Source: Candidatus Latescibacterota bacterium
Lineage (GTDB): Bacteria; Latescibacterota; UBA2968; GCA-2709665
DNA length: 64,000 nt
NCBI GenBank assembly: GCA_965226795.1
Contig: CBDDDZ010000005.1
Span: 704,001 to 768,000, forward strand
Reading direction: 5' to 3'
Below, piece by piece: positions 27,253 through 44,651 of this stretch; within the stretch, counting starts at the first letter, position 1, and each line of letters starts with the position of its first letter. Below the pieces are notes generated by a model, which was given only the letters and a program-made list of their open reading frames with translations, was not told the origin of the DNA and ran no database searches. Both the position numbers and the translations under genes were made by a program.

Positions 27253-28122
27253 TCAGCGGCCGGCCCTTCCACCCTGGTAGTTTTCCCGGTTTGCGGCGGC
27301 GATAACGGGCGCAATTTTGTCCGCGAACCGGATCTGGCTGTTGTCTTCCGGATCGTAGCCGATGATCTTCCGGGCGTTGGCGATACTCCAGAAATTGTGG
27401 CTGTTTCCGCTGATGCCGTAGAAAATCTGAAACGGGATGCCGTTCTCGTCTTCGATATTCTCCGTTTCGATGCTCTTAATCAGGAGTTGGGTCTGGTCCC
27501 GCGCGCTCAGGTAGGCCCCCAGGCCGCGGTGCATGCCCTTCGGGTTTTCCGGTCTGAGGTTGTCGGCAACGCTGTCGCGCGGCGCGCCGATGCGCAGCTG
27601 GATATTCTGAAGCTTCCTTCCGTTGCCGATCCTGCCCGCGGCAAAGGCGAACCCCAGCAGTTCGTAAGCGGCCTTGGCCCAGCCGTAGAAGTTGTCGGAA
27701 AGCGGGCGCATGTCCGGCGTGACGAATTCCATTGCCCCGGACCAGATGAGCGTCTCATAGAAGTCGGCGGCGTGGTTGGAACTGATGACGACCATTCGGC
27801 GGACGTTTTCTTCCAGACAGGTCTGGTAAACGTTATACGCTATGGCGATGTTGTCGGATTCGGCCCAGTATTGATCCTCCGGTTCTTTCGCACGGGTGAA
27901 GCCGCAATGTATCACGGCGTCTGTGTCCCTGAAATGCTCCCTGTACCCATCTCTGTCCCGGTTGAGGAGATCGGCCTGGATGATGCCCTCCACTTTATTG
28001 CCGGATCTGTCGGTTTTTCGGACGTCCAGCAGACCGAGGTTATATCGCTCCCTGAGGACAGGCAGGCTCCGTCCCGCTATGTATCCGGCTGCGCCCGTAA
28101 CGACTACCCTGCGTTTCGCCAT
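27253..28122 (-). CDS. NAD-dependent epimerase/dehydrogenase
   Basis: VVTGAAGYIA, SSNH, YGWAK, LRIG. Confidence 0.85.
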   Translation of the reverse strand: MAKRRVVVTGAAGYIAGRSLPVLRERYNLGLLDVRKTDRSGNKVEGIIQADLLNRDRDGYREHFRDTDAVIHCGFTRAKEPEDQYWAESDNIAIAYNVYQTCLEENVRRMVVISSNHAADFYETLIWSGAMEFVTPDMRPLSDNFYGWAKAAYELLGFAFAAGRIGNGRKLQNIQLRIGAPRDSVADNLRPENPKGMHRGLGAYLSARDQTQLLIKSIETENIEDENGIPFQIFYGISGNSHNFWSIANARKIIGYDPEDNSQIRFADKIAPVIAAANRENYQGGRAGR

Positions 28123-28133
28123 CGGAGTTTCCT

Positions 28134-28895
28134 TTACGGTAGTGAAAAGGGCATGGGGATTCCGGGGTGGTGCGTGTACCGGTTCTCGCCCCTGAGCAGG
28201 ATGGGCCGCCAGTCCCGGCCGATCGAGTTGGATTCGATCTGTCTGGCTTCCGGCGGGATAAAACGGACGGTAAGGCCGCAACGCCGGCGGGTCGAGGTAT
28301 TGGGCATGCTGGCGTGGAAAAGTTGGCCGTGATGGACTGACATCTGGCCTGCGCTGAGTTCCAGGTCTATCGCACGGCTGGTGTCGACGAGTTCGTCCGG
28401 AATTTCCTGGTTGATGCTCAATAGATTCCCCTCTCGTTCCGAAGCGCCGTGGGTAACGATGCCGCTCCTGTGGGAACCCGGGATAACCCGCATGCAGCCG
28501 TTCTCCGCGTCGCTGTCGTCTATGGCGATCCAGGCCGTATGCGCCAGCGGCGGCTTCAGACCCCAGTAAGTGACATCCTGGTGCCACGCCACGAAATGTT
28601 TCTCCGCTCTGTCGGGGTACTTGCAAAAAAAGTGCGTGGCCAGAAGCAGGATATCTCCACCCATGGCCTGTTCCATAACGTCGAGGATACGGTCGTCGGT
28701 GGAGAGCCTCCAGATGAATTCTTCTTCGAAATGGCGGGACTGGAGGCCGATCTGACAGATTTCTCTGCCCTCTCTGGCTTCGAGTTCGTCGAACTGCGCC
28801 CTGAATGCGTTGATCTCGTTTTCGGAGAAGACGTCGATTCGAGGCAGCACGCCATTGGCTTCGTAGTATTCGCCCAGGTTCTCGACGGCGGGCAT
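28134..28895 (-). CDS. PhyH-family dioxygenase
   Basis: WHQD, ENGCMRVIPGSH, HASMPN..RR. Confidence 0.9.
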   Translation of the reverse strand: MPAVENLGEYYEANGVLPRIDVFSENEINAFRAQFDELEAREGREICQIGLQSRHFEEEFIWRLSTDDRILDVMEQAMGGDILLLATHFFCKYPDRAEKHFVAWHQDVTYWGLKPPLAHTAWIAIDDSDAENGCMRVIPGSHRSGIVTHGASEREGNLLSINQEIPDELVDTSRAIDLELSAGQMSVHHGQLFHASMPNTSTRRRCGLTVRFIPPEARQIESNSIGRDWRPILLRGENRYTHHPGIPMPFSLP

Positions 28896-29115
28896 AGCGG
28901 AATCCCCCGTTCAGTGATAAAACAGGTGGCGGATAATCTACGGTGAATGGCGCAAGGGTGCAACCCGTTTTTGGTGCCGGCGGCCGATCCCGCGCCTGAG
29001 GATTGACAGACCGGACGCGGGTGGGTATCATGCGAAACCGGGAACCACTGTCCTCGTGCGATTGCGCCCGGTCTCGATGCAGGAGCCAACTGTTTTCAAT
29101 GATCGGAGGCTGGAA

Positions 29116-30228
29116 ATGAAAATCACCCGTGTAACCGCAATGGTGTTGCGGCTGCCCCATGTCACTGATGCCTGCGACGGTACGCAGGATACCTGTCTGA
29201 TCAGGGTCGAAACCGACGCCGGTCTCACGGGTTGGGGCGAGGTGGATTCCTGTCCGATGGCCGTCAAGGCAATTGTGGACGCGCCGCTGTCACACCAGAT
29301 CTGCAACGGTCTGGCGAACGCGCTTCGCAACGAGAATCCGCTCGAGGTGGAAGTGTGTATGCATCGTATGATGGTCGCGACAAACTACTACGGCGGAGGG
29401 GGCGTGGCGCTGCACGCCATGGCAGGCGTCAATCTTGCGCTCTGGGATATTGCGGGCAAAGCATGTGAACGGCCGGTATACCGGCTTCTGGGGGGACCCT
29501 TCCGGAAGCGTTTTCGGGCGTATTGTTCGATTCTGTTCGGAGATACGCCGGCTCAGACCGGAGAACTGGGGCGGAGGTTTGCGGGTGAGGGTTTTACGGC
29601 GGTCAAGTTCGGCTGGGGGCCGATGGGAAGGGACGAGGAGACCGATATCGCCCTGGTAAAGGAAGCGCGGCGGGGCGTGGGAGACGGGGTGGATGTGCTG
29701 ATCGACGCGGGGCAGGTATGGGACTGGAAGACGGCACTGAAACGAGCGCGTCAGTTCGCGGAGTTTCGCCCGTTCTGGCTCGAGGAGCCCCTGCAACCGG
29801 ACGACCTGCGTGGTTACTCCCGGCTGGCGGCGGAGAGCCCCCTGCCCATTGCCGCGGGTGAAGCGGAAGCACGTCTCGACGCTTTCGAGCGCCTGGTGTC
29901 GGATGGCGGACTGGATTGGGTGCAGCCCGATCCGGGGCGGTGCGGCATTTCGACCATGGTGGAGGTGGGAAGGATGGCGCACCGCCACCATACAGGGGTG
30001 GTGAATCACAGCTTCAAGAGCGGGATAACGATCGCGGCGTCGCTTCACGCGCTCGCCGCGGTACCGGGCGGGGAGATGTTCGAGTATTGTATGTCGGATT
30101 CTCCACTGCGCCACGAACTGACCCACCAGCGCTTCGAACTTGTCGACGGGTACGTCACGGTGCCCGAAGGACCGGGGCTGGGCGTGACGATCAACGAGGA
30201 CACCGTGGCGAAGTACCGGGTGGCATAA
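29116..30228 (+). CDS. Mandelate racemase/muconate lactonizing enzyme family protein
   Basis: LALWDIAGK, VKFG, LIDAG, WLEEP, AAGE, QPD, GPGLG. Confidence 0.9.
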   Translation: MKITRVTAMVLRLPHVTDACDGTQDTCLIRVETDAGLTGWGEVDSCPMAVKAIVDAPLSHQICNGLANALRNENPLEVEVCMHRMMVATNYYGGGGVALHAMAGVNLALWDIAGKACERPVYRLLGGPFRKRFRAYCSILFGDTPAQTGELGRRFAGEGFTAVKFGWGPMGRDEETDIALVKEARRGVGDGVDVLIDAGQVWDWKTALKRARQFAEFRPFWLEEPLQPDDLRGYSRLAAESPLPIAAGEAEARLDAFERLVSDGGLDWVQPDPGRCGISTMVEVGRMAHRHHTGVVNHSFKSGITIAASLHALAAVPGGEMFEYCMSDSPLRHELTHQRFELVDGYVTVPEGPGLGVTINEDTVAKYRVA

Positions 30229-30239
30229 TAGACATCCGT

Positions 30240-31136
30240 TCACCCACCGGAAGAACCCCGGTTTTTGTCCTGAAGTTCACGGATGAACGCCGGGCTCAGG
30301 GCGCCCTGAGCGACCTCCGCGACGGGACCCTCCATGGTAAGGCGGAACTCGGAGTTAACGGCGACGTGGAGAGCGCCGCCCGGAGCGTTCACGGTTACCG
30401 GCGATTCCACCAGCCCCAGGCGAACGGCGGCGCAGGCCGCCGCGCAGGACGACGATCCGGATGCCTGTGTTTCTCCTGCCCCTCGCTCCCAGATGAGAAT
30501 GAAGATTTCCATCGGACCCGTGGGTACGGCCAATTGCACGTTGATGCGATTGGGGAAGAGTTCGTGATTCTCCAGGGCGGGACCCAGGCAGAGCAGTTCA
30601 TCGCGCGTCCAGGCATGGTTCGAGGGTTTGAAGATAACGCAGTGCGGGTTTCCCACGCTGACGCCTGTGAATCTCAGGTCGCGTCCTGCGGCGGTTATCG
30701 GACAATCGATGAGTTCACCGCCGGCCAGCGTGCATGGGAGCGCGTCGGGATTGAAGTTGGCACGTCCCATCTCCACGGTTGCCAGGCTCGCTTCTCCGTA
30801 ACGGTCGATGTGAATCTGGATCTCCACAAGTCCGCCCAGGGTGTCTACGGTAAAGTTACTCCTACGCGTCCGCCGGGTGGCGTGGAGAAACCGGGCAAAA
30901 ATGCGAAGGCCGTTCCCCGACTTTTCTGCTTCGCTGCCATCGGGGTTGAAAATGCGCAGGCTGAAGTCGGCTCCTGCTGCGGGTTCCAGGGTGAGGATGC
31001 CGTCACCGCCGATACCCCGGTTGCGATCGCAAATATAACGGATATTCCCGGGAGTGAGTTCAAAGTCGAGTTCGGACGGATCCATAACGATGTAGTCGTT
31101 ACCCAGACCGTGGCCTTTAAAAAAACCGTTTCTCAC
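30240..31136 (-). CDS. dapF: Diaminopimelate epimerase-family protein with both catalytic Cys replaced by Ser
   Basis: KGHGLGNDY, GIGGDG, NPDGSEAEKSGNG, VGNPH, ERGAGETQASGS. Confidence 0.8.
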   Translation of the reverse strand: MRNGFFKGHGLGNDYIVMDPSELDFELTPGNIRYICDRNRGIGGDGILTLEPAAGADFSLRIFNPDGSEAEKSGNGLRIFARFLHATRRTRRSNFTVDTLGGLVEIQIHIDRYGEASLATVEMGRANFNPDALPCTLAGGELIDCPITAAGRDLRFTGVSVGNPHCVIFKPSNHAWTRDELLCLGPALENHELFPNRINVQLAVPTGPMEIFILIWERGAGETQASGSSSCAAACAAVRLGLVESPVTVNAPGGALHVAVNSEFRLTMEGPVAEVAQGALSPAFIRELQDKNRGSSGG

Positions 31137-31217
31137 GAATCCTCCGTCAAACGTGATTCGGGCGTCGGCGTTTGGGGGCATGAATCCGGCAAACCCCAAT
31201 ACCGACGCCCGTATCCC

Positions 31218-32186
31218 TTACTTCCACACCAGTACCACACCCATCGTCTCACCCAGCCGCGTGTAAAGCAAGTCAAAAGCTTCAGCAGCTTCCTGGAAGG
31301 GAAAGCGGTGGGTAATCATCTCTTCGGCGCGAATCTCTTTGTGGGCAAGCAGCTGGAGCGCACGGTCCGACCCCAGGGAGCGTTTGCCGCCGTCCGAATA
31401 ACCGCCGACAATGCGCCGGCCCTGGATCTTCCCGGAGTCGAGGGGAAGCGGCTCTTCCTCATATAAGCCGATGACCTGGATAAGTCCCCGGCGTTTCACC
31501 ATATCCTGCGCCTGTGCGAAGGCGGCCGCGCCCGCGCGCCCGCCCACCGCCTCAACCACGACGTCGACGCCGGCGCCCTCCGTCAGCCGCCCGATCGCCC
31601 GCACCGGATCTTCCCGGGATGCGTCCACCACGTGGTCGGCGCCGAGGCGCCCTGCCAGGTCGCATCTGAGGGGCAGCGCATCCACCGCGATAACCCTGGC
31701 GTCCATGTCTGCCTTAAGCGCCTGCATGCAGATGGAGCCCACCAGACCCTGTCCGAGAATGGCGACCGTGTTTTCTTTGCGGGCGTCGATTTCCCACATC
31801 CACAGGACGGAACTCGTGCTCAGCGGCCAGAAGGTGGCGGCTTCGGAGGAGACCGCATCCGGAAGATGCACTACAGGATCTGTGTGGCGGGAACCCACGA
31901 TTTCGACGGCAACGTACTCCGCGTGTGGCGCAATCGCGGCCACACGGTCTCCCATAGAGAAGCCGTCAACGCGCGCACCGACCTCGACGATGTCCCCCAC
32001 GAATGAGTAGCCCATGCTCTGATGGTCGATGGACTCGGGACGGATGTAACGCCGCCAGATTTCGGAACCCCGGCTGATCAGGCTGCATTCTGCCCGGATC
32101 AGAACCTGGGTGGGCGCGATCTCGGGTATGGGTACGTCTTCGATTACGATATTGTATTCGCCTTCCGGCTTTGCAACGCGTTTCAT
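31218..32186 (-). CDS. MDR/zinc-type alcohol dehydrogenase-like protein
   Basis: SLISRGSE, GYSFVG, GQGLVG Rossmann motif, ITHRF. Confidence 0.85.
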   Translation of the reverse strand: MKRVAKPEGEYNIVIEDVPIPEIAPTQVLIRAECSLISRGSEIWRRYIRPESIDHQSMGYSFVGDIVEVGARVDGFSMGDRVAAIAPHAEYVAVEIVGSRHTDPVVHLPDAVSSEAATFWPLSTSSVLWMWEIDARKENTVAILGQGLVGSICMQALKADMDARVIAVDALPLRCDLAGRLGADHVVDASREDPVRAIGRLTEGAGVDVVVEAVGGRAGAAAFAQAQDMVKRRGLIQVIGLYEEEPLPLDSGKIQGRRIVGGYSDGGKRSLGSDRALQLLAHKEIRAEEMITHRFPFQEAAEAFDLLYTRLGETMGVVLVWK

Positions 32187-32298
32187 GATGGAGTTCCTGA
32201 ATTTGAAACATCGAACAGGGTGGACGAAAACGTCTTGATGAACGAGGGAGCGAAATGCTCGACGGAGCGACTCCGGTCGTGCGCTTCGGAGTTGTCGG

Positions 32299-33036
32299 TT
32301 ATGCCACCGGCGTGAGATCCTGGATGTCGCATCGAAAAACCCACGTGCCCTCTCTTACGTAGTGTATGGCGAACGCCAGGCGGGGCCTGCCGATGGACCG
32401 GTTTGCGTACGAGCCGTGGATGGTTCCGCCGGTAAAGTAGACCCCCGACCCACGCGGTACCGTAAGAAAGGTGAGTTCGTCCGGGCGCGCGCCGGTGACT
32501 TCGTGGGAGTGCATGGTTTCGGACCACTCTTTTCCGTCGGGTCCGCGCATGGCATAATCTTTCACCCACGAGGCGTGTTCACCGCTGTCTTCGGGGGGGC
32601 GGGTTTTCCGGAGCGGGGCCAGGTGGCTGCCGGCGGCGACGCAGAGACCGCCGTTGTTTCTGTCGGTGTCGCTCAGTGCGAGCCAGCAGGCCATGAGGGT
32701 ACCGGGTTCGTTCCGGATATAGTGGGCGTCCTGGTGCAGCGCGATGCCGGTGCCGCCTCTCGGCGCTTTCGCCATGTACATGGTTTGAACGATCATTGGC
32801 GGCCCACCCAGCAGTTGGGTCGCGATGCCCGTAACGCGAGGGTGCGACGCCAGATAGCGCCACTGCGGGTCCGCAGTGTGTCTGCGCAGGCCGAGTTCCA
32901 GGATTTTCGGAGGCTTCGGCTCTGCCTCCTCTTCCAGGAAGGTGTCGATTTCACGCCCGGTCAACTGGTTCGGAACCTGGATGAATCCGTTTGTTCGATA
33001 CGCTGCCATCTGTCCGGGTGTCAGTGCGAGTTCCAT
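32299..33036 (-). CDS. PhyH-family dioxygenase
   Basis: LHQD, NGGLCVAAGSH, IHGSYAN..R. Confidence 0.88.
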   Translation of the reverse strand: MELALTPGQMAAYRTNGFIQVPNQLTGREIDTFLEEEAEPKPPKILELGLRRHTADPQWRYLASHPRVTGIATQLLGGPPMIVQTMYMAKAPRGGTGIALHQDAHYIRNEPGTLMACWLALSDTDRNNGGLCVAAGSHLAPLRKTRPPEDSGEHASWVKDYAMRGPDGKEWSETMHSHEVTGARPDELTFLTVPRGSGVYFTGGTIHGSYANRSIGRPRLAFAIHYVREGTWVFRCDIQDLTPVA

Positions 33037-33049
33037 CTCGGCTTCCGCT

Positions 33050-34000
33050 TCAAGCGAGGTCGTATGGATTGGACCAGGCCTTGGTGCCGTCCGTTCCGAT
33101 GACTTCGAAACGTGCCCAGCGCGCGCCGGGACGCAGCTTGAAGGTGGCACTTGTAAATGGATTCCCGGATTCTCTGTATTCGGTACCGAAGGTATCGCAA
33201 ATGGCAAGGATACACCGGGATTCGGAACATTCCACAGTGGCCTCCACGGCCCCCGGCTCACCCATGGTCTTGCGCAGGCTGATGCTGCGAATTCTCGCGC
33301 CCGTGCTCGAATAGCTCGCACCCTTTGCGAGCGCTTCGACAATGTCCCGCGGGGAGCGGTCTTTCACGCACGCCATCGTCCAGCCCCCGTAGGTATCGCG
33401 ATTGTCGGATTCGAGGGCGTGGGAATCGTCGTTGGCCAGTGCGGGATACAGCCTGCTTTCCAGGTCCATCCAATCGTCCCAGTGAACGCCGGATTCGCCC
33501 CGTCCTGCGCATCGGCAGGTCGTGTTGAACACCTCCACGCCGGCCAGTCCCGTCAGGGGCAGGGTGTCGCGGAGTATGTTGACCGAGCTCCAGTAAGGGT
33601 GGGCCAGCCACGTGCTGCCGCCCTGGTCCTGCACGGCGTCGATAACGTGCTGGGGGGGCATGTTCTCCGAGTCCAAATCTTCGTGGATGTTCAGACAGAG
33701 AAAATGGTGTTTCTGACCTCCGAACGGGTTGTCCGGATGCAGTTCTGCGCCCTGAATGAGTACAAAATCCTCAGGACAGTCCACGGAATCGATCCGGGTG
33801 ATTCTGCGATGGTCCGAAAGGCAGAGATAGTCGTATCCCTGGTTGACATAACCATCCAGGCGCTCCTGGGGCGACGCCCTGCCGTCGGAGTTCGTCGTGT
33901 GGGAGTGTAGGTTGCCCTTCAGCCAGAAATATCCGTCTTCGGCCTTAAGGCTGAAGGGATCGACAAGGTTGTGACGCGGCGGGTATTGAGCCATGGACAT
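33050..34000 (-). CDS. PHP-domain metallohydrolase (CehA/McbA-like)
   Basis: GNLHSHTTNSDG, SDH, AHP, EVFN, NDDSH. Confidence 0.85.
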   Translation of the reverse strand: MSMAQYPPRHNLVDPFSLKAEDGYFWLKGNLHSHTTNSDGRASPQERLDGYVNQGYDYLCLSDHRRITRIDSVDCPEDFVLIQGAELHPDNPFGGQKHHFLCLNIHEDLDSENMPPQHVIDAVQDQGGSTWLAHPYWSSVNILRDTLPLTGLAGVEVFNTTCRCAGRGESGVHWDDWMDLESRLYPALANDDSHALESDNRDTYGGWTMACVKDRSPRDIVEALAKGASYSSTGARIRSISLRKTMGEPGAVEATVECSESRCILAICDTFGTEYRESGNPFTSATFKLRPGARWARFEVIGTDGTKAWSNPYDLA

Positions 34001-34072: not shown

Positions 34073-35245
34073 TCACCTTCGGCCGACAATTGACGGCAGA
34101 TTGGTTACCGGACATGCCCTGGCCCCCTTGACGTCGTATCCCATGTCTTTGAGGATACAACTGATCTGCGCTTCCAGCTTGAGCAGATAATCCTTCTCCT
34201 CGGCGCTCATGGCCTGGCGTGGCGGACCGACGTCGAAACCCCGCACCGCCACGCCCGTTTTAAAGCCTTCCGGGAAGTTCACTCCCAGCAGCATGAGGTT
34301 GATAAGGTCCAGTACGCGATATTGCATGTCGCGCGCGTTTTCGATTTCGCCGGCCAGGGTTTTTTCGTAGATGTCCACAATGACTTCGGGAATGATGCCG
34401 GATGTCGCGATCGTGCCTCCGCTCGCGCCCATCATGATTGAGGGACAGAGGATTTCTTCGCAGCCGACCAGGACCACGTACTCGGGGCGCTGCGCGCGCA
34501 GCCGGTGCATGGTGTTGATCAGGCGCGGCATGTCCCGGCTGGAGTCTTTGGTACCCATAATGCGTTCGAACGGCAGCAACCGTTCCATGATGTCCAATGT
34601 GAGTTCCTGCGTGAACTGGGGGATATTGTACACGAGAACGTCTAGAGGTGTCTGTCTGGCGATTTCGGCGAAGTATTCGAAAAGACTGGTATCGGATATC
34701 TTGTAATAGTAGGGGGGTACAAGCGATATGGCGTCGACGTCAATGCTGGCGTAGTATTCGCCCATCTTGAGCACGTCGCGGAGGTTTGCCTCGCTGGCGC
34801 CGGCCAGAACCGGCACCCGCCCCTGGTTGACGTTCGTGACAACCCGCACCACCTCTTTGCGTTCGTCGCTGGACAGGCGCACGAATTCGCCCGTGCTGCC
34901 ATTCGGATACAACCCGTGGATGCCGGCCTCGATGAGCCAGTTAACGTAGCGCTCCATCTCTCCGTAGTTGATGCGGTCGTTGCCGTCGAAGATGACGATG
35001 TTGGGGCAGAAGATGCCCTTGAATTCCCTTCTTGCACCTGCGTTTCGATGGCGGAACGGCACCGAGGTCCGCAGACCGGCGGGTGCGGCCTCGTTCCTCG
35101 TCACCTCCACGCGGTTGGCCGCCAGGTAATCCAGCGCCAACGGAGTCAGCTTTGCCCGCGGGCAGATTTCGACCTCGCGCTGCGTGCCCAGTTTATCCTT
35201 GAGCAGCTGTTCGGTAACGACCGGATCGTCAATGCGGATCATCAA
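34073..35245 (-). CDS. DHDPS/DapA-family aldolase or dehydratase with ~70-aa N-terminal extension
   Basis: GSTGE, PPYY, YNIP, GTKDSS; N-terminal VVTE...AKLTPLALDYL domain. Confidence 0.85.
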   Translation of the reverse strand: MMIRIDDPVVTEQLLKDKLGTQREVEICPRAKLTPLALDYLAANRVEVTRNEAAPAGLRTSVPFRHRNAGARREFKGIFCPNIVIFDGNDRINYGEMERYVNWLIEAGIHGLYPNGSTGEFVRLSSDERKEVVRVVTNVNQGRVPVLAGASEANLRDVLKMGEYYASIDVDAISLVPPYYYKISDTSLFEYFAEIARQTPLDVLVYNIPQFTQELTLDIMERLLPFERIMGTKDSSRDMPRLINTMHRLRAQRPEYVVLVGCEEILCPSIMMGASGGTIATSGIIPEVIVDIYEKTLAGEIENARDMQYRVLDLINLMLLGVNFPEGFKTGVAVRGFDVGPPRQAMSAEEKDYLLKLEAQISCILKDMGYDVKGARACPVTNLPSIVGRR

Positions 35246-35281: not shown

Positions 35282-36442
35282 TCAGTGAATCAGCCGCTCT
35301 TCCAGTGCCGGAATGGGGTTGGGTATGAGATGGGCGGATACCAGCTCCCCATATTTCTCTGCTTCCATCGCGCCGACTCTCAGCGCCGTGCCAACCGCGC
35401 CGACGTCTCCCCGGATTACGCTGGCCGTGAGAAAGTACCCCACCTTGTACCGTCCCTCGTATTCCACGTCGGCGGATTTCAACATCTGATCCATGGCTTT
35501 GACCAGGGCCACGGTGCTGCGGGTTTCGATCAGGCCCATCGCCAGGTTTCCGCTCGCGGGTCTCCCGGTGTCGCTGCCGCCAAAACAGGCCAGGATTTCG
35601 GAAGATGGACGGGAAACAACGCACGACGCATTCAGTTCCCCGGCTTCCTGAGCGCCGTCGACGCCGGCCTGGACGGCTGCCTGGACCGCGTCAAGGGTAC
35701 CCTTCACCAGCGCGTCTACCCGTCCTCCTCCGGCAATGGCGAGGCGCACGAGGCCAACGTCAGCCGCTTTGACCATCGCGTCGCAGCCGCCGACCGCACA
35801 CGCATAGCCGGTCGTCTCAAGAACACCCAGCGCGCCGACGTCGATCTCCGGCCCGTTCGATATCGGTGTATAGGGAAGCAGTGGCGCGATGCCCTCTTCG
35901 GGGCTCGGAATGTCCAGGGCGGCGTAGACCTCTCCGACCTCACCCGCGCACGCTTTACCGGCCTGGACGGCGGTCCGGACCGACGATATATCGCCCCTTA
36001 CCATAAGATGAACCAGTGCGCCGCCGATGGATGCCCAGCCGGCGACGTGGACGGGCGCGCTTTTGATCATGGCGTCCGCGCCCCGGATGAGGGGCGCCAT
36101 GCCGCGGGTTTCGAGGATACCCACCGCCAGGGGTCCGACCGGCCTCGCCGCGGTTGCACCCGTCCTGTGGGGCATGGATTCCAGGGCACGCGCGTCGGGA
36201 CCCGGGATGACGTTGGCAGTGATCAGGTCGCCGTGATTCGCGGCCTCGGTTCTGCCTATTCCGACGGCGGCTTCGACGTCCGAAACGGACCCTTCAATGA
36301 CAACGGTCACCCAACCGGAACCCACGCCGTGTCGTCCAAGAACCCTGACGTCAACGGTCTTCAGCATGGCGTCGAGGGCCGCAATGAGCGCGGTCATGCC
36401 GCGGGTTTCCAGAATCCCCAGGGCATGATTTCGTGCGTTCAC
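35282..36442 (-). CDS. BMC shell protein with four tandem BMC domains
   Basis: Four repeats of A(L/V/M)G(I/V/L)(L/I)ETxG...DxMxK...GxVxxVxxAV...(I/V)PxP. Confidence 0.9.
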   Translation of the reverse strand: MNARNHALGILETRGMTALIAALDAMLKTVDVRVLGRHGVGSGWVTVVIEGSVSDVEAAVGIGRTEAANHGDLITANVIPGPDARALESMPHRTGATAARPVGPLAVGILETRGMAPLIRGADAMIKSAPVHVAGWASIGGALVHLMVRGDISSVRTAVQAGKACAGEVGEVYAALDIPSPEEGIAPLLPYTPISNGPEIDVGALGVLETTGYACAVGGCDAMVKAADVGLVRLAIAGGGRVDALVKGTLDAVQAAVQAGVDGAQEAGELNASCVVSRPSSEILACFGGSDTGRPASGNLAMGLIETRSTVALVKAMDQMLKSADVEYEGRYKVGYFLTASVIRGDVGAVGTALRVGAMEAEKYGELVSAHLIPNPIPALEERLIH

Positions 36443-36451
36443 GGCAGCCCC

Positions 36452-37009
36452 TCAGGGGCCGAATGCCCGGAGGACTTCGGGCAAGGGTTGGGGAATCAGC
36501 GCGTCACAGAGGAAATTTTCCCCGGCTTCAACGCTCGCGCGTCCCACGGGCAGTGCTTCGCCCACGGAGGCTACATCGCCCAGAATAAGGGAGCAGACCA
36601 CCCGGTTGTGAACGGTGAGCACGTTATAGATCCGGACGTCGGCCGCTTTGACCATGTGGTCGTTGGCGGTGATGTGGGCGCCATATCCCCTGGTCTCGAT
36701 CAGACCCAGTGCACCGGACGCTGTCCGCCGTCCATGCGCTCCTGCATTAGAGACGTATTCCCGACAGATGGGTTCGGGTTGTGTCATTGGCGCCACCACC
36801 ACGTGGCTCACGACCTCTCTGGCCGCTTTTTCACCGCTCTTTAGCGCCGTATCGACCCTGCTTATGGATCCGCCCAGGAAAACGGTGGTGAATCCGCCGA
36901 TGGATTCCCAACCCAGGAGATCCACGCCGGCGGCTTTACAGGCGGCATCCGCCGCAAGAATAATGCCGGCGACGCCTTCGACTTCGATCATGCCGATTGC
37001 GGCTGACAT
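36452..37009 (-). CDS. BMC shell protein with two tandem BMC domains
   Basis: AIGMIEVEG..ADAACKAA and ALGLIETRG..NDHMVKAA. Confidence 0.9.
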   Translation of the reverse strand: MSAAIGMIEVEGVAGIILAADAACKAAGVDLLGWESIGGFTTVFLGGSISRVDTALKSGEKAAREVVSHVVVAPMTQPEPICREYVSNAGAHGRRTASGALGLIETRGYGAHITANDHMVKAADVRIYNVLTVHNRVVCSLILGDVASVGEALPVGRASVEAGENFLCDALIPQPLPEVLRAFGP

Positions 37010-37462
37010 GCTTCCGTCCAGGTGTCGTTATATCGAACGGTTAGGATCGAATATTACAAGGAGCGGCCAAAGCCAGACTTTTCCCCTGCTACCCGAGGGG
37101 CGGACGTAGACTATAGGGTGCTCCCGGAAATTATCCAATCGGACAAAATAGATGCCGGTCGAACCAAAGTCAAGGGCTATCGACCGAACGGGCCGGGGGT
37201 ACGACCTGAGAAGGGCGCACCACAAACGCTCCGGGCCGAGACCTCTGCGTTCATGCTCGAAATGCGTCGGAATCCCCCTCAAAAGCCGTCTGACAAATGC
37301 GGCGTGACGGGTGGCCTCATCCCGGTCGGGAGCATGGCAGTTCGTTCTGCCGGAATGCCTGGCGTGAGGAAATCGGAAGGCGGACGAAACGCGATTCGCC
37401 GGAGACGTCTGAAAGACCGGCGTGCCGGCAAACGACACTTCTTGTTTTCGCGACGCAGGGGC

Positions 37463-39883
37463 TCAGAACAACAGTACCGAAACGGCTTTCTGGATCATGG
37501 CAATGGAGACGGAGGCCATACCCACGAGGGACATTCCCACCGAAAATCCGACGTAGAGCACCGCGGCATAAAGGCGCCACTGCTGTCTGCCGAATCGCTT
37601 CCAGAAATAGTACCGCGCCAGGAGTGCACCGATGATCTCGGTGATGAGGAGGTGCGGAATGCTGGTCAGGCTCCGTATGTACCCGAAAATGAGCAGTATG
37701 GGCAGGCCGAAGACGGACAGAGCCACGAACGAGATCAGGCCGACGCCGAGTCCGATGAAGATAACCTTTTTCTTGAGGGCCTCGTACAGGATCGGCACGT
37801 CGTCCGAACTCTGAAGGTAAGAACCGTCGAAGGACGGTACCTGGTCCACTTCGAACTGGTATACCAATTCCCGATCCTGCGGGTCCCGGGCTTCGAGAAC
37901 GACCATGTTGGGATTGGGGTTGTCCGCGTGGCTTTCGTCTGAAGGACTTCGCAACACGGGCGCCGAAGGCAGCCCTTGCCGCAGAGCATCGGAAATGTCC
38001 GGTTCCGCCCGGTCCACCGGGAGCGGAGGCGTGAGAGGCCGGGTGGCGTCCTCGAAGTTCGTATAAAAGTACCCCACGCGGGACCAGGGCCCGTAGGCGC
38101 GTTGTTCGTGATCTTCGATGTCAACGTCGGCCGAGGTGCGTGCCCGCCAGTACCACCAGTTGCCGTCGGGCAGATTGCTGGGCTGGAAGGACACGGTTCC
38201 GGATGACGTGTCGGTCTCCACCTCGCCCTGCATGGTGGCGGTGTACCAGACACTGCTCTGCAGCGCCCGAAGCGGCCACATCAGCTGGACGTAGGGGTAG
38301 GAGGCCGAGGGAATAGGCGCCAGCTTCCAGATGTAGGACCAGTACATGAAACTGGTGAACAGCACGAGAGGCACCATGAAATATTCTGCTTTCAGGATCC
38401 CGGTGAATTTCGTTCCCGTGAGTTCGATCTGGCGGAACCGTTCCGCCTCGGCTCCCCAGTTGTGGAGGGGGAACGGCACAAACCAGATCTCGATGCCTTT
38501 AAAGCCGCTCAGGAAGATGGTGGCTTCCCTGATATACGGGATATTGACATTCTGTCCGACCAGGCCGTCCAGACGGGCGTTGACGAAGGAGATCAGCGGG
38601 GTGTAGACAAACGCGAAGATGAAAAAGAAGGCGAGAAGAACCTTTCCAACCAGGTCGGGAAAGAGAATCTTGGCCAGGATGATGGTGTACAGGCTGGCAA
38701 TACAGAAAAGGACGATGCAGATCCAGATACGGAAATCGCCCCGTCCGGGCGGCGGCGTCCAGCTTCCCTTTTCCTTCTTTTCCAGCCGGGCGGTCCGAAC
38801 CCCTGTCCAGACCTGGTAGAATCCGATAATTGCGATGGAGACGGTGATGCCGATGCCGAAGCTCATCCAGAAATCGATGCCCGTAACGAAGTGGGTCATG
38901 ATGGTATCCATTCCCATGAACCAGTGGGGCATGTATCCGTGCTGGTACAGGATGGGGCTGGCCACGGTGTGGATGACGACGCCGATGAATGCGCCCATGA
39001 CGGCCCAGAATGGCGCCAGAAGGCCGGCGAAGATGGGCGCCAGGTGGAGCGTGAATCCCAGCGGCGTGGCCTCCAGGAAATACCCCGTATACTGGGTGAA
39101 ATCCACCCATGGGATGGGGATGAGTTGAAGCGGGTTTTCCATGAACGCGCCGGTAATGGCGGGCACGGCCACGTAAATGGCCCCCCACACCACGCCGATC
39201 ACGGCGCCGATGCTGAAGACGCGCCAGCGCCATCCGTATTGGCCACTGCTTTCTTCCGCAAGCGCCATGGCGCCCTGTGCGTTGATGGGCGCGAACGGGA
39301 AAGGCAGGCGTTCGTAGTCCGAGGTGATGCGGAAGAGCACGTAACTGGCGGTGAACCACTGGATGCGTGCCATGATCATTCCCAGGACGAGCAGGGAGAT
39401 GGGCAGGAGCCAGTCCGCGTGCAGAAAGGTGCGGTCGATCAGGGCGGGAGAGTCGGGCGGGGGCGCCCACCAGCGGGGGATGAGGTGCGAGATGCCGAAC
39501 TGTTTGGCGGCGGGTGACTGAACGTAGTACTGGTGCCAGAGCAGGCCCTCGAATGCGCCGGTTTCTCGGGCAACCAGGGCGCTGGTGACATAAAAGAGAA
39601 GGTAAAGCTCCTGCTTTTTCAGCACGGTGAACGAGCGCTTGGCCAGTTCCAGAAACAGAATGATCGTTACCCACTGGGCAGCCGAGCCAACGGACTGACC
39701 CACCATCAGTTCCAGATAGATGTTGCCCGGAACCATAATTATGGAGACGAAGAGCGCGCCGAGAATGGTCTTGGAGTTGAAGCCCTCTTCGAATTCCTTG
39801 GGGACTTCAAGGAGATCCCGGTATTCTTCGATTTCCTGGAACGGATTGGTTTTGCGCTTGCGAAAGAGGTTCGATAACGCCAT
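37463..39883 (-). CDS. Multi-TM OPT-like (putative peptide) transporter with inserted soluble FN3-like domain
   Basis: Many TMs, ERLPFPFAPI, APIPSASYPY; hydrophilic insert with WYWRAR..YGPWS and YQFEVD. Confidence 0.7.
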   Translation of the reverse strand: MALSNLFRKRKTNPFQEIEEYRDLLEVPKEFEEGFNSKTILGALFVSIIMVPGNIYLELMVGQSVGSAAQWVTIILFLELAKRSFTVLKKQELYLLFYVTSALVARETGAFEGLLWHQYYVQSPAAKQFGISHLIPRWWAPPPDSPALIDRTFLHADWLLPISLLVLGMIMARIQWFTASYVLFRITSDYERLPFPFAPINAQGAMALAEESSGQYGWRWRVFSIGAVIGVVWGAIYVAVPAITGAFMENPLQLIPIPWVDFTQYTGYFLEATPLGFTLHLAPIFAGLLAPFWAVMGAFIGVVIHTVASPILYQHGYMPHWFMGMDTIMTHFVTGIDFWMSFGIGITVSIAIIGFYQVWTGVRTARLEKKEKGSWTPPPGRGDFRIWICIVLFCIASLYTIILAKILFPDLVGKVLLAFFFIFAFVYTPLISFVNARLDGLVGQNVNIPYIREATIFLSGFKGIEIWFVPFPLHNWGAEAERFRQIELTGTKFTGILKAEYFMVPLVLFTSFMYWSYIWKLAPIPSASYPYVQLMWPLRALQSSVWYTATMQGEVETDTSSGTVSFQPSNLPDGNWWYWRARTSADVDIEDHEQRAYGPWSRVGYFYTNFEDATRPLTPPLPVDRAEPDISDALRQGLPSAPVLRSPSDESHADNPNPNMVVLEARDPQDRELVYQFEVDQVPSFDGSYLQSSDDVPILYEALKKKVIFIGLGVGLISFVALSVFGLPILLIFGYIRSLTSIPHLLITEIIGALLARYYFWKRFGRQQWRLYAAVLYVGFSVGMSLVGMASVSIAMIQKAVSVLLF

Positions 39884-40010
39884 GGAATTCTATCGAGATG
39901 TGAGGGTTAGCGGGCTGGGAAAAATACAAATAAAGAGGGAATTTGCAAAGACAATTTCCGGATTGCGATATCTATATCCCAAACGCGTCCTGTCTATGCC
40001 GCATCTTTTT

Positions 40011-43000
40011 TCATGTGGTTTTCGCCCCCTGTTCGTCGGAGACGAGTATTCGCATGCCTTTTTCCCGGTAAGCCGCTTTCTCGGCAGGATCGACAGTCCG
40101 CCAGATGAGAAACTGTTTTCGCAGGGTATTCATGAACCCCTGGTTGACCCTTCGCCAGGAGGCGACTTCGCCGGAGCGGCGCCTGAGTGAGAGTGTCAGG
40201 GTGTAGATGTCGAAATTGCCGGTGGGTTCGGCCTCGAAACGAAGCTCCTGGCTCACGCCCAGATCGAATGGCGCCAGCCATAGGGTCGTGTGGATGACGT
40301 ACCCCTTTTTGTCCGCGCTACCCTTTCCGTAAAGATGGGCCCCGTCCGTATAAAAAGCCCCCATGGCTTCGCCACTGTGGGATTGGAAGTAATCGGCGAG
40401 AAAGACGCATAGCCCGAATACCTCATTGCCGCCGACCGTAAATGGGAATTCGAACCGCCAATCGTCGCCTTCCGGCTCTGGAAGTTTCCACCTGCGGGAC
40501 ACGTCCGGTACGGCCATCAGGGAGGCCTGCCGGGCCGGATAGATGGTGGACAGGATGACAACGGCCATTACCAGGACGGACGCGGCCACCGCGGAGCGGG
40601 CGGAGTAGTTTAACGTGACGCCCGAGAGCAGGTCCTGCCAGAGCAGCAGTTTGGCAACGCCCTGGCCCATCAGGTAGCCGCTCACCGTGCCGAGGACGGC
40701 GTAGACGCAAGCTTCGGCAATAAACAGAAAGGCGATATGGACGGGAGCCAGCCCCACCGCGGAATAGACGCCGATTTCCCGAAATCGCTCGTAAACCGAT
40801 CCCATCATGGTATTCAGTACGATGAGTGAGGCAATGAGGATTGGGATGAACAGATTACTCAGCCCCCGTACCGAGGTGTCGCCGAGCGAACTGAAGACGG
40901 AGACCCTGATACGCCCGTCCGCGTCCGGAAGGCCGGCAAACAGGACAACGGAGAGCCTGGACAGCAGTTCTTTGACGTACGCCCCCACGTTTGCGCCGGC
41001 TTCAAAGCGCAGAGCAACCGATTGGAGCGGGCTGCCCACCTGACGCAGGAACTTGTAGGGTACGATCATGATATCGTCCGGGTTGATGTGCTCAAAGGGC
41101 ATGATTTCAACTTCCGGTTGTTCGAGACCCTGTTTTTCTCGCGTTTCCTGGGTGGTCATCTGTTCGATGGCTTCCTCGTCCGTAAGTTTGAAATCCGCGG
41201 GACTGAGCGGTTCTTCGTCCAGGTCCTTCAGCCGATTGAACGCGCCGGCGTCGATCAGGCCGATAACCGGCAGCGATTCGCCGAAAATCCGGACTCGGGT
41301 CGCCTCCGGGCGGCCGGCGTCGACGCCGAGGAGGTCCGCTATCTTTTCGGGCAGGATGCAGGCGGTTTCGCCCGGACGGAACCAGCGCCCGGACTTGAGT
41401 GTGCGATGGACTCCGGTTACGTCCGCCTCCTGGGGCGTCATTCCCAGGACGCCAAGCACGTGCGTCGAGCGGGCTGCGGACTTTACGGGGATGATCTTCT
41501 TCTCCCGCGTGTAGTACCAACTCCGGGGGGCCGCTATGGCGGATTCCCCGAAGTGGGTGACGGCGTAATCGTAGACGACATCTTCCAGCGGGCCCCAGAA
41601 CTTGCTGCGGATGAGTATTCCTGGATACGGACCCTCGGTGTCTTTGGGAATCCGGTGGAATTCGAGAGCCGATTTGATGGACGTGAACGAGAGAACCGTG
41701 AACGTGAGCAGCAGGAGCGTCGTGAACGTAAGCGCCGTGCGCAGTTTACGGCGTTTCATGTTCGCAATGCCGAGTTGGAAAGCGGCCATGGATGCGGAGA
41801 TTCTACCGACGTCGGTTTCGTGCAGCAGCACTTCCGGGACCCGTATCCGGCGCATGGTTTCGTTGAAGCGCTTAAATACCAGGGAGATGACAAACGCGGC
41901 AAGCGCGAGAATGACAAAGGCGAGCAGCACAACCACAGGATTGGAGATCTCGAATGCCGGGTGGACATTCGATAAAAAAAGCCAGATGAGCAAAAAGATA
42001 CCAACGAATCCTGCGATCTGTCTTCGGATATCCACGGCGCTGAAGATGAGGCGTTCGGCGAAAAACGCGCATGGGATGACCAGGGCCATGAAGAAAACGA
42101 TGCCACGCACCACGTCGTTCTGGGTGTCTTTGACGTCCGGGTAGGCACGGGATTCGATGCCCAGCGCCGCGCGGGTGTGTTTCATGAAAACATCCCAGCG
42201 CTTTTCCGACATGGCGTCTTCGGCCATTTCCAGGTGGTGGCCGGCCTGGCTGTGCAGCAGGTTCAGACGCTGGTTTTCAATGGCGTATTTCTGCATTTCC
42301 TGTTTTCGGGCTTCGTTCAGGATCCACATGTCTCTGGCGGCCAGAAATGAGGTGCGCGCAAGGGCGCCGTGGGTGAGGGTGGGGTAGCCCCGGCCGCGGG
42401 CGATTTCCTCGCTCTGTGCGCTTTCGGCATTCAGCAACAGGTAGCGGATGCCTATGTCGCCTGAGCCCGCTGTGATATCGCCGCCGCGCATGGCGACTTT
42501 GACCCTCTCGCCCGGGCGCGTGAACAGGGTGCCGACGGGTTCCGTCGGCCCGAATCCGATGGCATACCCGTATTCCTGCGGCGTGATATTACCGCTTCCG
42601 TAAACGCTGATCTGAGAGAGTTTGGTAAGGTAACGCGGATCGACGGTATCGTAAAAATCCGTGGCGACGCAGGGAAACAGAATGATATTTCGTTTGGAAA
42701 TCCACCAGTTCATATCGAAATCGCCCCGGTAGATACGCGCTTGCTGTCCGAAGTTTGGTGCGTAGGTGATCTCGCCGGTCTCGGGATCCAGAAAGTAGGC
42801 GCTGACGGAAACGCGGCGTTCGGCAACGCCGGGCATGTAGAATTCGCCGTTCTCGTCGGTCAGGTCGTAATAGATGCGCCGAACGCCCTTGACTGATTTG
42901 TCGATACCCATTCGGAGCGCGGCGATGGCGCCCTTCTTGGGGCGGTCGGGTACGATGCTGCGCCTTGGAAAGGTCCGCACGAATCCCTTAAGGCCGCGCA

Positions 43001-44546
43001 TGCGGTCGTCCGGGTTGAGCCGATGGTCAGGGATGAGCGTGGGGTCGTTCAGGGCAATGTCGAGCACGCCGGTAATCAGTCTGATCTGTTTGGCGAGATT
43101 TTCAAAGTTGACCCCTTCGGGCCGGTCCAGCGGCGTATCGAAGCGAAAACGGGCATCGTTCAACGTAACCAGGGACAGCGCGAGCGTGCCTGCTTCGAGA
43201 ACCACTTCGCCATCGGTCTTCAGGTTAACGCCGGGAATATACATGTCCCAGGTCATTCCACCCGTGGGATTGATTCCGTCCATCAGTGCCTGATCGGGGT
43301 CCAGCCCGAACGCAGGTGCGATTGCATGCGAGATGCGGACGAATTTCTTGCCGAACGGTGTGAAGAACCGGTTGTAGTAGAAGTTGCGCGTGCTGTTCCA
43401 GACACCTATCTGGGCCGTCTGGCTCGAGAGGTCCAGTCCGATGAAGAGACGAATGTCGATGGGATCGGTCATCAGGGCCGCGAAATGCCTTTCTTTTCTG
43501 GCGTGGCGGCCCAGGAAATCGCAGATGCCGCGAAAGCCCAGGTGGTGAGCCGAGGTGGCCAGAAAGAGTAGCGTGCGCGCGGTGGGATATCGCTGGAAGT
43601 AATTGACCAGTTCAAGCAGTGCGACGGCGCCGCTGGCCATCTCGGCGCCGGGGGCCAGGGCGGGAACCACGGACATGGCGTCGTAGTACGCGTTGATCAC
43701 GACGATCTGGTCCCTGAGGCCCGGATCCGTGCCAGGCAGAAAGCCCAGAATATTGTGGGCGGTGTGTTTTTCCCACTCCATTCTCGCCTTCAGTTCAATT
43801 TCGAGTTCGCCGTGCAGGGCAAGCAGACGTTTGAGCGCCCGGCCGGACTGTCTGTCGATCCAGAATCGTTCCACGCTGTTAGGAACCTGCAGGAATTTCT
43901 GTTCGGCTTCGGTATAAAACGTGGAATCCGGTTCGATGAAAATAACCTGTTCCGCCCCCAGCGTGGCCGCGTTCAGCCAGTGGTTCCGTGTGTTGAATTC
44001 CATCAGGACGGCCGCGCCCTCGAGCGTGTGTCCGTTGAAGTCGGAAAATTCACCATTTGCCCCGTAGATCAGGCGAGTGCGAACCCCTTCACGCGGCAGT
44101 GTGGAGGTCTTGACCAGGTTCGGCCAGACGGCGTGGATGGGATACGAAGTGCCGTCGCGCACGAGGGTCAGGCTGCCGCCCTTGTCGATAGGTGCGGTCA
44201 CGTCGAATGGCTCGGAACGTACGTCCTTAAGGCCGGCGCGTTCGAAACTTCGCCGGATGTAATCGGCGGCAACTGCATGGCCGGTATATCCGGGAACGCG
44301 CGATCCGTGACCCGTAAAGCGGGCCATGTGGGCGCGTACGCCGTCAGACGAGACGGTATCCAGGACGCGGACCGATGTCTTTCCCGCTCCCGGGACGGGC
44401 CTGGGCGGCGAGGGTCGGGGTGCCTTCAGACCCAGTATGGCGGCAAGGTAGGGGTTGACGCGTTCCGGGCCCACAGCCATGCAGAAGAAAGCAGTAGCGG
44501 TGAGCAGGAGCGTAAGCACGAGTCCGATGCGTCGGCGGCTATTCAT
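40011..44546 (-). CDS. FtsX/MacB-like ABC permease fused to an M28 peptidase-like domain
   Basis: SRVPGY.G, NAYYD..APGA, GLDLS; C-terminal SVYERFREIGVYSAVGL permease motif. Confidence 0.8.
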   Translation of the reverse strand: MNSRRRIGLVLTLLLTATAFFCMAVGPERVNPYLAAILGLKAPRPSPPRPVPGAGKTSVRVLDTVSSDGVRAHMARFTGHGSRVPGYTGHAVAADYIRRSFERAGLKDVRSEPFDVTAPIDKGGSLTLVRDGTSYPIHAVWPNLVKTSTLPREGVRTRLIYGANGEFSDFNGHTLEGAAVLMEFNTRNHWLNAATLGAEQVIFIEPDSTFYTEAEQKFLQVPNSVERFWIDRQSGRALKRLLALHGELEIELKARMEWEKHTAHNILGFLPGTDPGLRDQIVVINAYYDAMSVVPALAPGAEMASGAVALLELVNYFQRYPTARTLLFLATSAHHLGFRGICDFLGRHARKERHFAALMTDPIDIRLFIGLDLSSQTAQIGVWNSTRNFYYNRFFTPFGKKFVRISHAIAPAFGLDPDQALMDGINPTGGMTWDMYIPGVNLKTDGEVVLEAGTLALSLVTLNDARFRFDTPLDRPEGVNFENLAKQIRLITGVLDIALNDPTLIPDHRLNPDDRMRGLKGFVRTFPRRSIVPDRPKKGAIAALRMGIDKSVKGVRRIYYDLTDENGEFYMPGVAERRVSVSAYFLDPETGEITYAPNFGQQARIYRGDFDMNWWISKRNIILFPCVATDFYDTVDPRYLTKLSQISVYGSGNITPQEYGYAIGFGPTEPVGTLFTRPGERVKVAMRGGDITAGSGDIGIRYLLLNAESAQSEEIARGRGYPTLTHGALARTSFLAARDMWILNEARKQEMQKYAIENQRLNLLHSQAGHHLEMAEDAMSEKRWDVFMKHTRAALGIESRAYPDVKDTQNDVVRGIVFFMALVIPCAFFAERLIFSAVDIRRQIAGFVGIFLLIWLFLSNVHPAFEISNPVVVLLAFVILALAAFVISLVFKRFNETMRRIRVPEVLLHETDVGRISASMAAFQLGIANMKRRKLRTALTFTTLLLLTFTVLSFTSIKSALEFHRIPKDTEGPYPGILIRSKFWGPLEDVVYDYAVTHFGESAIAAPRSWYYTREKKIIPVKSAARSTHVLGVLGMTPQEADVTGVHRTLKSGRWFRPGETACILPEKIADLLGVDAGRPEATRVRIFGESLPVIGLIDAGAFNRLKDLDEEPLSPADFKLTDEEAIEQMTTQETREKQGLEQPEVEIMPFEHINPDDIMIVPYKFLRQVGSPLQSVALRFEAGANVGAYVKELLSRLSVVLFAGLPDADGRIRVSVFSSLGDTSVRGLSNLFIPILIASLIVLNTMMGSVYERFREIGVYSAVGLAPVHIAFLFIAEACVYAVLGTVSGYLMGQGVAKLLLWQDLLSGVTLNYSARSAVAASVLVMAVVILSTIYPARQASLMAVPDVSRRWKLPEPEGDDWRFEFPFTVGGNEVFGLCVFLADYFQSHSGEAMGAFYTDGAHLYGKGSADKKGYVIHTTLWLAPFDLGVSQELRFEAEPTGNFDIYTLTLSLRRRSGEVASWRRVNQGFMNTLRKQFLIWRTVDPAEKAAYREKGMRILVSDEQGAKTT

Positions 44547-44651
44547 AAGGATTGCAGGTCGGGGTTCTGTTGAACGCCCGTCGATTGAAGGTGGTGGTTT
44601 TTCGTTCCATGCCACGGCCCGGACGCGGGAGAAAGCTCCTGCTGCTGCCGA

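Follow-up and report, generated by a model that had tools for sequence, protein, structure and literature searches.

Two adjacent genes encode two and four shell-protein domains

The window analysed here is a stretch of 64,000 nucleotides from a Candidatus Latescibacterota bacterium (GenBank assembly GCA_965226795.1, contig CBDDDZ010000005.1, positions 704,001 to 768,000 of the forward strand). On its minus strand lie two adjacent genes for bacterial microcompartment (BMC) shell proteins, which we call B and A, and the question addressed in this report is whether their products share one shell tile. Gene B (36452..37009, minus strand) starts with ATG and encodes a two-domain, non-permuted shell protein of 185 aa. 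Gene A (35282..36442, minus strand) starts with GTG and encodes a four-domain shell protein of 386 aa. The spacer between them (36443..36451, minus strand) is 9 nt long, and a GAGG run resembling a Shine-Dalgarno sequence overlaps the TGA stop codon of B.

When scanned with Pfam PF00936 (gathering cut-off 24.5), A contains four full-length stretches (E 2e-76, 252 bits) and B two (E 2e-33, 114 bits), so neither corresponds to BMC-H, which is defined by one PF00936 domain per chain and assembly as a homohexamer. The AlphaFold2 models are of high confidence (A: predicted local distance difference test (pLDDT) 92.1 and predicted template-modelling score (pTM) 0.90; B: pLDDT 93.8, pTM 0.91). In these models the domains are non-permuted, with an identical strand-helix order in each repeat, and those of A resemble the canonical BMC-H proteins PduA and EutM (VIA-align; Z ~17, root-mean-square deviation (rmsd) ~1 Å). 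Pairwise identity among the six domains of A and B is only 23-40%, and the pair is therefore no recent duplication or assembly repeat. The edge motifs are DAACK (B21), DHMVK (B117), DAMLK (A24), DAMIK (A123), DAMVK (A221) and DQMLK (A318); the pore-loop motifs are SIGGF (B36), TVHNR (B132), GVGSG (A39), SIGGA (A138), IAGGG (A236) and KVGYF (A333). An earlier note on this DNA had described four- and two-domain genes 9 nt apart, non-permuted domains and these twelve motifs; the open reading frames and the PF00936 scan bear out the first, the models the second, and all twelve motifs were located in A and B.

A scan for promoters and terminators gave no signal above shuffled sequence. Two matches to a sigma70-like consensus lie upstream of B (37110..37173, minus strand), in a scan that gave 4 matches where 2.0 ± 1.6 are expected by chance.

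The two genes occur together and in one order

Among 8000 scored candidates, 261 homologues of A were found at E ≤ 0.001. Lengths run from 366 to 402 aa among the best 120 listed, and those with a named organism come from Latescibacterota or from metagenome-assembled genomes (MAGs) labelled "Gemmatimonadota". With this many homologues, of uniform length among the best 120, the four-domain reading frame is not a product of chance. An alignment of 87 A homologues was used as query for genome loci, of which 77 were retrieved: A is complete (A1-A2-A3-A4) in 69, cut by the contig in 7 and split 3+1 in 1. A B orthologue (B1-B2) lies immediately 5' of A in 73/73 of these loci with upstream DNA, the other 4 being contig-cut. 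The reverse query with B retrieved 79 metagenome loci, where A1 is directly downstream in all 67 assessable cases (12 are cut). In a survey of the phylum, B was found in 84 and A in 83 of 168 genomes; in the lone genome with B only (G095), B runs off the end of a 2-kb contig, and another genome (G096) has two copies of B, each followed by A. Since the genomes are related and some records appear in several sets, these counts describe a stable linkage and not independent events. Within that scope, the question posed in the earlier note, whether four-domain homologues always sit beside a two-domain gene, is answered in the affirmative.

In each of the 65 loci for which a start was called, the start codon of A lies within -13 to +14 nt of the stop codon of B, and in 42 of them the two genes overlap; another 8 loci are without a call. 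Such spacing fits translational coupling, and we infer from it that B and A are translated in a coupled manner. The mirror-tree correlation of A and B distances is 0.97; it was not used as support because shared ancestry predicts it.

Linkage of this kind can be read in another way. B might be a homotrimeric BMC-T tile with alternating short and H-N-R pore loops, and A might form an oligomer of its own (A1A2 x3 and A3A4 x3, in stacked or adjacent rings) or a bridge between tiles, the linkage then being functional only. We regard this reading as unlikely. Operon linkage is by itself no proof of binding, and three A chains, with 3 x 4 = 12 domains, would likewise make whole rings. B was never found without A, however, a dependence that an independent trimer would not need.

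A few loci differ from the common arrangement. In a single metagenome contig (L162:244-1452), an in-frame TAG between A2 and A3 gives an apparent 2+2+2 arrangement; the stop is probably an error or the mark of a pseudogene. At L074:4080-4200 (the contig is that of L117), the A3-A4 linker is 14 nt short by comparison with L084. This deletion leads to a stop, and 4 nt further on an ATG opens A4; the arrangement may be a natural 2+3+1 split or else come from an assembly error. The L027 locus, from a record labelled Planctomycetota, clusters with Latescibacterota copies in the domain tree described below, which reflects either transfer or mis-binning.

Each domain keeps its own pore loop

In a domain tree of 10 sampled loci, each of the six domains forms its own supported clade, and in each the pore and interface residues are near-invariant and position-specific. 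The canonical BMC pore loop is K-I-G-S-G, and the loops of A and B were assigned because they align to it. All domains lie on the minus strand, and the percentages that follow refer to 91 non-redundant pairs. In B1 (36758..37006) the loop is S-I-G-G-F, one residue below canonical length. B2 (36461..36718) has V-H-(N/D)-R (H 89, N 60 or D 39, R 100%), with Arg136 invariant, and a donor motif RGY with Tyr109 invariant. The loop of A1 (36173..36430) is H-G-(I/V)-G-S-G-W, with the final G-S-G-W at 100, 93, 93 and 100% and Trp44 invariant; that of A2 (35879..36133) is I-G-G-A (G 100, G 98, A 95%). A3 (35582..35839) carries (G/A)-S-G-G-R, here IAGGGR (S 92, G 100, G 100, R 100%), with Arg241 invariant. 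Lastly, A4 (35291..35548) has K-V-G-Y-(F/Y) (G 100, Y 95, F 65 or Y 34%) and a donor motif RST in place of RGL. The idea that every domain has a distinct pore loop, first put forward for this one locus, thus holds position by position across the relatives.

The edge lysine is conserved in 108/108 pairs in five domains and in 107/108 in A2. The edge arginine of the (P/A)RPH motif is common only in A1 (83 of 108 pairs) and A3 (89 of 108), and elsewhere the residue is mostly Gln. A degenerate edge arginine is as expected of a specialised, not a basal, tile (PMC8217296, section 11).

A 1:1 complex is predicted to close a six-domain ring

A prediction of the 1:1 A:B complex scored 0.74, with 0.00 for the best control; the runs share at least 96% of their contacts, and the partner pLDDT is at least 88. 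The mark set for this score is attained by 116 of 157 solved pairs and by 2 of 215 mismatched pairs, a calibration that is roughly applicable here, where our own alignments were used. The modelled ring closes in gene order, B1-B2-A1-A2-A3-A4, with A4 back onto B1: residues 107-138 of B2 contact A1 (8-48 and 74-92), and residues 308-339 of A4 contact B1 (7-42 and 71-85). The closed 1:1 ring that the earlier note had named as a check is thus present in the model. The model indicates that the geometry fits; that B is the specific partner does not follow from it.

The linkers A1-A2, A2-A3, A3-A4 and B1-B2 are mostly 23-26 residues long, compared with 23-25 in the generic tandem protein, and these lengths suit neighbouring ring positions. 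By fold, the tandem chains of PDB 6NER, which we take to be a designed, trimerising BMC-H fusion, match both A3-A4 (Z 27.6, rmsd 1.3 Å over 177 residues) and B (template-modelling (TM) score 0.84-0.86). The models of A and B differ from PduT or HO BMC-T1 by an rmsd of 15-17 Å, and the TM score of B to 3n79 and 5dih is ~0.43. Since both proteins are 6NER-like and unlike PduT and HO BMC-T1, they would have the same ring handedness.

Several of these observations bear on the B homotrimer introduced above. In its geometry B resembles the 6NER tandem chain, as would be expected of such a trimer. The model places the shortened B1 loop between the bulky ones of A4 and B2, and a B trimer would likewise alternate short and bulky loops, so the loop arrangement is compatible with B3 too. 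On the other side, the linker between A2 and A3, shortest of all with 23 aa in 55/70, suits a neighbouring ring position, and A alone is modelled as one rigid unit (pTM 0.90), though a single-chain model is blind to rings formed between chains. The calculated masses are 58.2 kDa for A:B, 57.2 kDa for a B trimer and 117.5 kDa for an A trimer. As A:B and B3 differ by 1 kDa, size-exclusion chromatography with multi-angle light scattering cannot by itself tell them apart, and we rejected it as a decisive test of stoichiometry.

Another possibility is that A forms a four-domain arc that is completed promiscuously by two BMC-H monomers, by a generic BMC-T or by B, giving mixed tiles. We consider this improbable. 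A generic BMC-T with equal linker length is encoded near the pair in most relatives, as such a reading would have it. The clade of the window, however, is without the generic BMC-T and yet has kept B. In three of its genomes (G000, G056 and G043) there are 8 BMC domains in total, namely those of two BMC-H proteins, B and A, so that the sole candidates for completing A there are B or two BMC-H. Moreover, the faces that would close the ring carry near-invariant, non-canonical residues (R-S-T in A4; His38 and Trp44 in A1; Tyr109 and Arg136 in B2), which suggests fixed partners.

Genomic context of the pair

Beginning 39 nt after A, the window encodes a PF00701 class I aldolase of the dihydrodipicolinate synthase/N-acetylneuraminate lyase (DHDPS/NAL) family, with GSTGE, YNIP and KDSS motifs (34073..35242, minus strand). 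Cleavage of a 2-keto-3-deoxy sugar acid, a reaction known in the PF00701 family, yields pyruvate and an aldehyde. Among solved structures the window's enzyme comes closest to a putative DHDPS (3eb2, E 4e-37) and to the keto-deoxy-sugar-acid aldolase YagE (3e-35), and no NCBIfam family scored above its cut-off. The N-terminal domain of about 50 aa (35090..35242, minus strand) is present in a single copy in the genome and occurs also on the Cys-rich protein of the MUF2 loci discussed below. An atlas search with it gave best scores of ≤0.83, and PF15953 is found in 12% of the members of a 0.77 match, a weak PduM-like lead only.

Of the 74 loci long enough to show it, 70 have the aldolase gene next after A. 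Of 84 matches to the aldolase in the genomes, 6 are distant and without the N-terminal domain, and 76 of the 78 others have B, the remaining 2 being contig-cut just upstream. Conversely, 8 genomes have B and no aldolase, and three of these are one- or two-contig assemblies (G101, G106, G107), so the aldolase is not obligatory. A Cys-rich protein of ~160 aa with 6-8 Cys (e.g., L027:5499-5993) is encoded directly 5' of B in most relatives, and a 165-aa form of it matched no Pfam or NCBIfam family. In loci L047, L072, L085 and L174 (G101) the Cys-rich protein is kept and the aldolase absent; in the clade of the window it is the other way round. In 75 of 77 loci the pair is flanked by a protein that carries the shared ~50-residue N-terminal domain; in the other two the contig is cut. 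This shared domain may be a candidate dock onto an A:B tile, and the PF00701 aldolase is a probable cargo or docking partner.

In most relatives the full locus comprises BMC-P genes, aldehyde dehydrogenase (AldDH), PduL, the generic BMC-T, BMC-H, the Cys-rich protein, B, A, the aldolase, an FAD oxidoreductase and a second PF00701-like protein. In the source genome and its closest relatives, only B, A and the aldolase gene stay joined, apart from the main shell locus. The latter lies on contig C4 (G000:C4:39500-49100; L001:6540-16065) in the order PduL, an inserted membrane protein gene, BMC-H, BMC-P, AldDH, two BMC-P, class II aldolase, acetate kinase and extended BMC-H.

The separation of the pair from the main shell locus, on a different contig, would be in keeping with an A:B complex that acts as a soluble sensor, or as a scaffold for enzymes, independently of any shell, and so would an edge arginine that is degenerate in four domains. 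We nevertheless hold this to be very improbable. Most relatives have the pair within their main shell locus, the edge lysine is essentially invariant, and satellite shell loci are common according to the accessible part of Axen (2014; PMC4207490). Furthermore, of the 168 genomes surveyed, 146 have BMC-P (vertex) genes; these comprise 83 of the 84 pair-bearing genomes and 63 that lack the pair. The one pair-bearing genome in which BMC-P is missing, G148, is 78% complete. The pair is thus an optional shell add-on rather than a stand-alone system, and the shell-independent sensor considered in the earlier note finds no support.

Some further features of the neighbourhood were recorded. In L064, L065, L067 and L087 the generic BMC-T cassette (in three of them with BMC-H too) is duplicated within the locus, and B and A are single. 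Upstream of the pair (37463-46721, minus strand) the window encodes a DUF6785/DUF6784 protein (689 aa), a protein of 1534 aa with an FtsX C-terminus, and a membrane protein of 806 aa that gave no Pfam match; only in about 15 close relatives does this membrane-protein cluster adjoin the pair. The catabolic run downstream (26001-34000) encodes a PHP-like metallohydrolase, two PhyH dioxygenases, a Zn-dependent dehydrogenase, a diaminopimelate (DAP) epimerase-like protein, two enolase-superfamily dehydratases and an NAD epimerase, and is likewise found beside the pair in close relatives only. Two tRNA genes lie on the plus strand, tRNA-Phe (GAA) at 46821-46896 and tRNA-Val (GAC) at 58287-58363.

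A proposed asymmetric tile

We consider it probable that A and B form a 1:1 six-domain pseudo-hexamer, a 4+2 heterodimer that serves as a minor tile of a MUF2-type metabolosome, as an asymmetric gate and/or a docking site. B and A would be co-translated and join one-to-one into a ring, B1-B2-A1-A2-A3-A4, without internal symmetry. The complex would take its place in the shell of a MUF2-type aldehyde metabolosome as a minor tile with a specialised role, the remaining parts of that metabolosome being those encoded on C4. Fixed domain positions would permit a lopsided pore, in which four glycine-rich loops (A1, A2, A3 and the short B1) would stand against two bulky or polar ones (A4 with G-Y-F and B2 with H-N-R) that flank B1. 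Such a tile could act as a selective gate for an anionic sugar-acid that the linked class I aldolase consumes or produces, and it is plausible that an anionic substrate would meet the His and Arg of B2. An aldehyde from the aldolase could then be handled by AldDH, PduL and the kinase. In addition or instead, A:B may offer one oriented site at which the small N-terminal domain encoded by the flanking genes could dock.

A number of observations weigh against this proposal. The controls of the complex prediction were unrelated proteins, not BMC paralogues, and the model may have passed because of its likeness to often-solved BMC hexamers and tandem trimers. All A-B loci probably share one origin, so the linkage counts are non-independent. 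BMC-H paralogues widely cross-associate, including CcmK3/CcmK4, according to the accessible part of PMC12058022, which would favour a promiscuous completion of A. Contigs from RNA libraries of 3 studies span B and A, with the aldolase in 3 of 4 runs examined as well, and count in favour of the pairing, but they may include DNA and give no start, strand, level or proof of a single transcript. As the edge arginine is degenerate, shell insertion leans mainly on the edge lysine. In an analysis of covariation (mutual information with average product correction (MI-APC); 91 of 108 pairs after removal of near-duplicates, effective number of sequences (Neff) 39.7), ring neighbours did not score above non-neighbours, and neither B2-A1 nor A4-B1 was preferred over B2-B1, as a B trimer would also have it; even neighbours within one chain were not recovered, so the analysis was without power and speaks neither for nor against the ring. 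Finally, no six-domain fusion was found among the best 150 representatives or 62 longer matches to B, a weak absence. Two candidates for such a fusion were rejected: P0293 (569 aa) consists of two domains and a low-complexity tail, and P0244 (411 aa) contains B1, part of B2, A1 and an out-of-frame rest, and looks like a frameshifted read-through.

The 4+2 asymmetric tile was first suggested from the letters of this locus. Linkage, the closed 1:1 model and the pore loop peculiar to each domain now speak for it, and B homotrimers and higher oligomers of A are the less likely outcome. More tentatively, and with less confidence than we attach to the pairing itself, one could see in it a third natural way of building a BMC facet: an obligate 2+4 heterodimer without rotational symmetry, in which a bulky side facing a glycine-rich side would read a chiral sugar-acid and one unique surface would dock an adaptor of ~50 residues.

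If the proposal is correct, A:B would be a natural, sequence-defined asymmetric pore with a single-site attachment point, and a scaffold for position-by-position pore design. The shell tiles in the reviews consulted are homohexamers or homotrimers, so that pore residues recur six or three times; engineers and modellers want tiles with six separately settable positions, and the arrangement of hetero-hexamers is variable. The pair would also give a handle on the uncharacterised MUF2 metabolosome, which is common in marine and sponge-associated Latescibacterota. Together with natural three-domain chains, tiles would then be partitioned as 1x6, 2x3, 3x2 and 2+4.

Such three-domain BMC proteins turned up in the searches. 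There are 14 of them (P0261, P0264, P0268, P0270-P0275, P0281, P0301, P0302, P0305 and P0314), 283-330 aa long, with three PF00936 stretches in 14/14 tested, and one cluster is named from Candidatus Calescamantes. Their chains could close a ring as dimers. Natural three-domain BMC proteins were not found in the literature searched for them.

Comparison with known systems

The earlier note took the pair for a possibly undescribed class of shell protein. Both proteins are in fact already on record: Supplementary Data 2 of Sutter et al. (2021; PMC8217296) mentions "very unusual quadruple linear fusions" and a Ts_hazel double fusion in MUF2 loci, and also notes a Cys-rich protein and an N-terminal domain that it has in common with the pfam00701 aldolase. 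An A homologue, CME28_01110 (P0121), adjoins by locus tag CME28_01115, which is listed there as Ts_hazel, and from these neighbouring tags we assign B to Ts_hazel. What stands of the claim is the 4+2 pairing, which was not found in print. In the text portion of Supplementary Data 2, pairing, stoichiometry, pore asymmetry and strict linkage are absent ("heterodimer" and "hetero" have 0 occurrences), while its locus diagrams may show the adjacency; nor was a 4+2 tile found in the literature searched, which left out most subscription journals and bioRxiv supplements. The "quadruple" in the accessible part of PMC10853475 is a mutant strain and has no bearing on four-domain proteins, and the accessible part of PMC11585597 proved equally unrelated. 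New here are the proposal of an asymmetric tile with a fixed 2+4 make-up and that of a domain docking on it, the four-domain protein having previously received one sentence in print.

The likeness to MUF2 is close. Its "large H_blurple" (quadruple) and Ts_hazel (double) occur in the same organisms, in MAGs labelled Gemmatimonadetes or Handelsmanbacteria, and it shares with our system AldDH, a phosphotransacylase (PTAC), a class II aldolase, a BMC-P triplet, an extended BMC-H and a Cys-rich protein with the N-terminal domain of the pfam00701 aldolase. On C4 (L001) we found AldDH, PTAC (PduL), a pfam00596 aldolase, the BMC-P triplet and a BMC-H with a C-terminal extension; both kinds of linear fusion, double and quadruple, are present too, as is a pfam00701 aldolase that carries the shared N-terminal domain. 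The source genome (95.9% complete) departs from the MUF2 description in one respect, with one 93-aa BMC-H and one extended 160-aa BMC-H. The MUF2 record comprises 13 loci, whereas the pair is found here in 84 of 168 genomes of the phylum. A related SPU-like locus of Latescibacteria, with an RpiB-like protein beside AldDH, PduL, class II aldolase and acetate kinase, is given in the accessible part of Axen (2014; PMC4207490). We rejected an SPU-like assignment: AldDH, PduL, an aldolase and AckA are present, but RpiB (PF02502) was not found in the genome.

BMC-T(s) homotrimers such as PduT (3n79/3pac) and HO BMC-T1 (5dih/6n06) also place tandem PF00936 domains in a hexagonal pseudo-hexamer. They differ from A:B in being three-fold symmetric, with two kinds of pore loop and no four-domain chain, and in their domain placement (rmsd 15-17 Å to the A and B models). 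B by itself has two non-permuted PF00936 domains, like a BMC-T(s), and its clade is filed as Ts_hazel by Sutter et al. (2021); its predicted model lacks the domain placement of PduT and HO-T1.

CcmO and 6NER are likewise linear, non-permuted BMC-H fusions, and 6NER is the best fold match. The chains of both have two domains and are homotrimeric. CcmO belongs to the beta-carboxysome, whereas the neighbours of A and B are metabolosome genes. An identity of our proteins with CcmO was rejected on this context and on the best NCBIfam match (NF053792), with 243.5 and 88.3 bits at a cut-off of 270.

Single-domain BMC hetero-hexamers are established, as the accessible part of PMC12058022 describes for CcmK3/CcmK4 and PduA/PduJ, and they also break the six-fold symmetry of the pore, by mixing paralogues. 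Within that part of the source, such hexamers contain two kinds of monomer in a variable arrangement, whereas A:B would fix the positions of six domains by covalent linkers.

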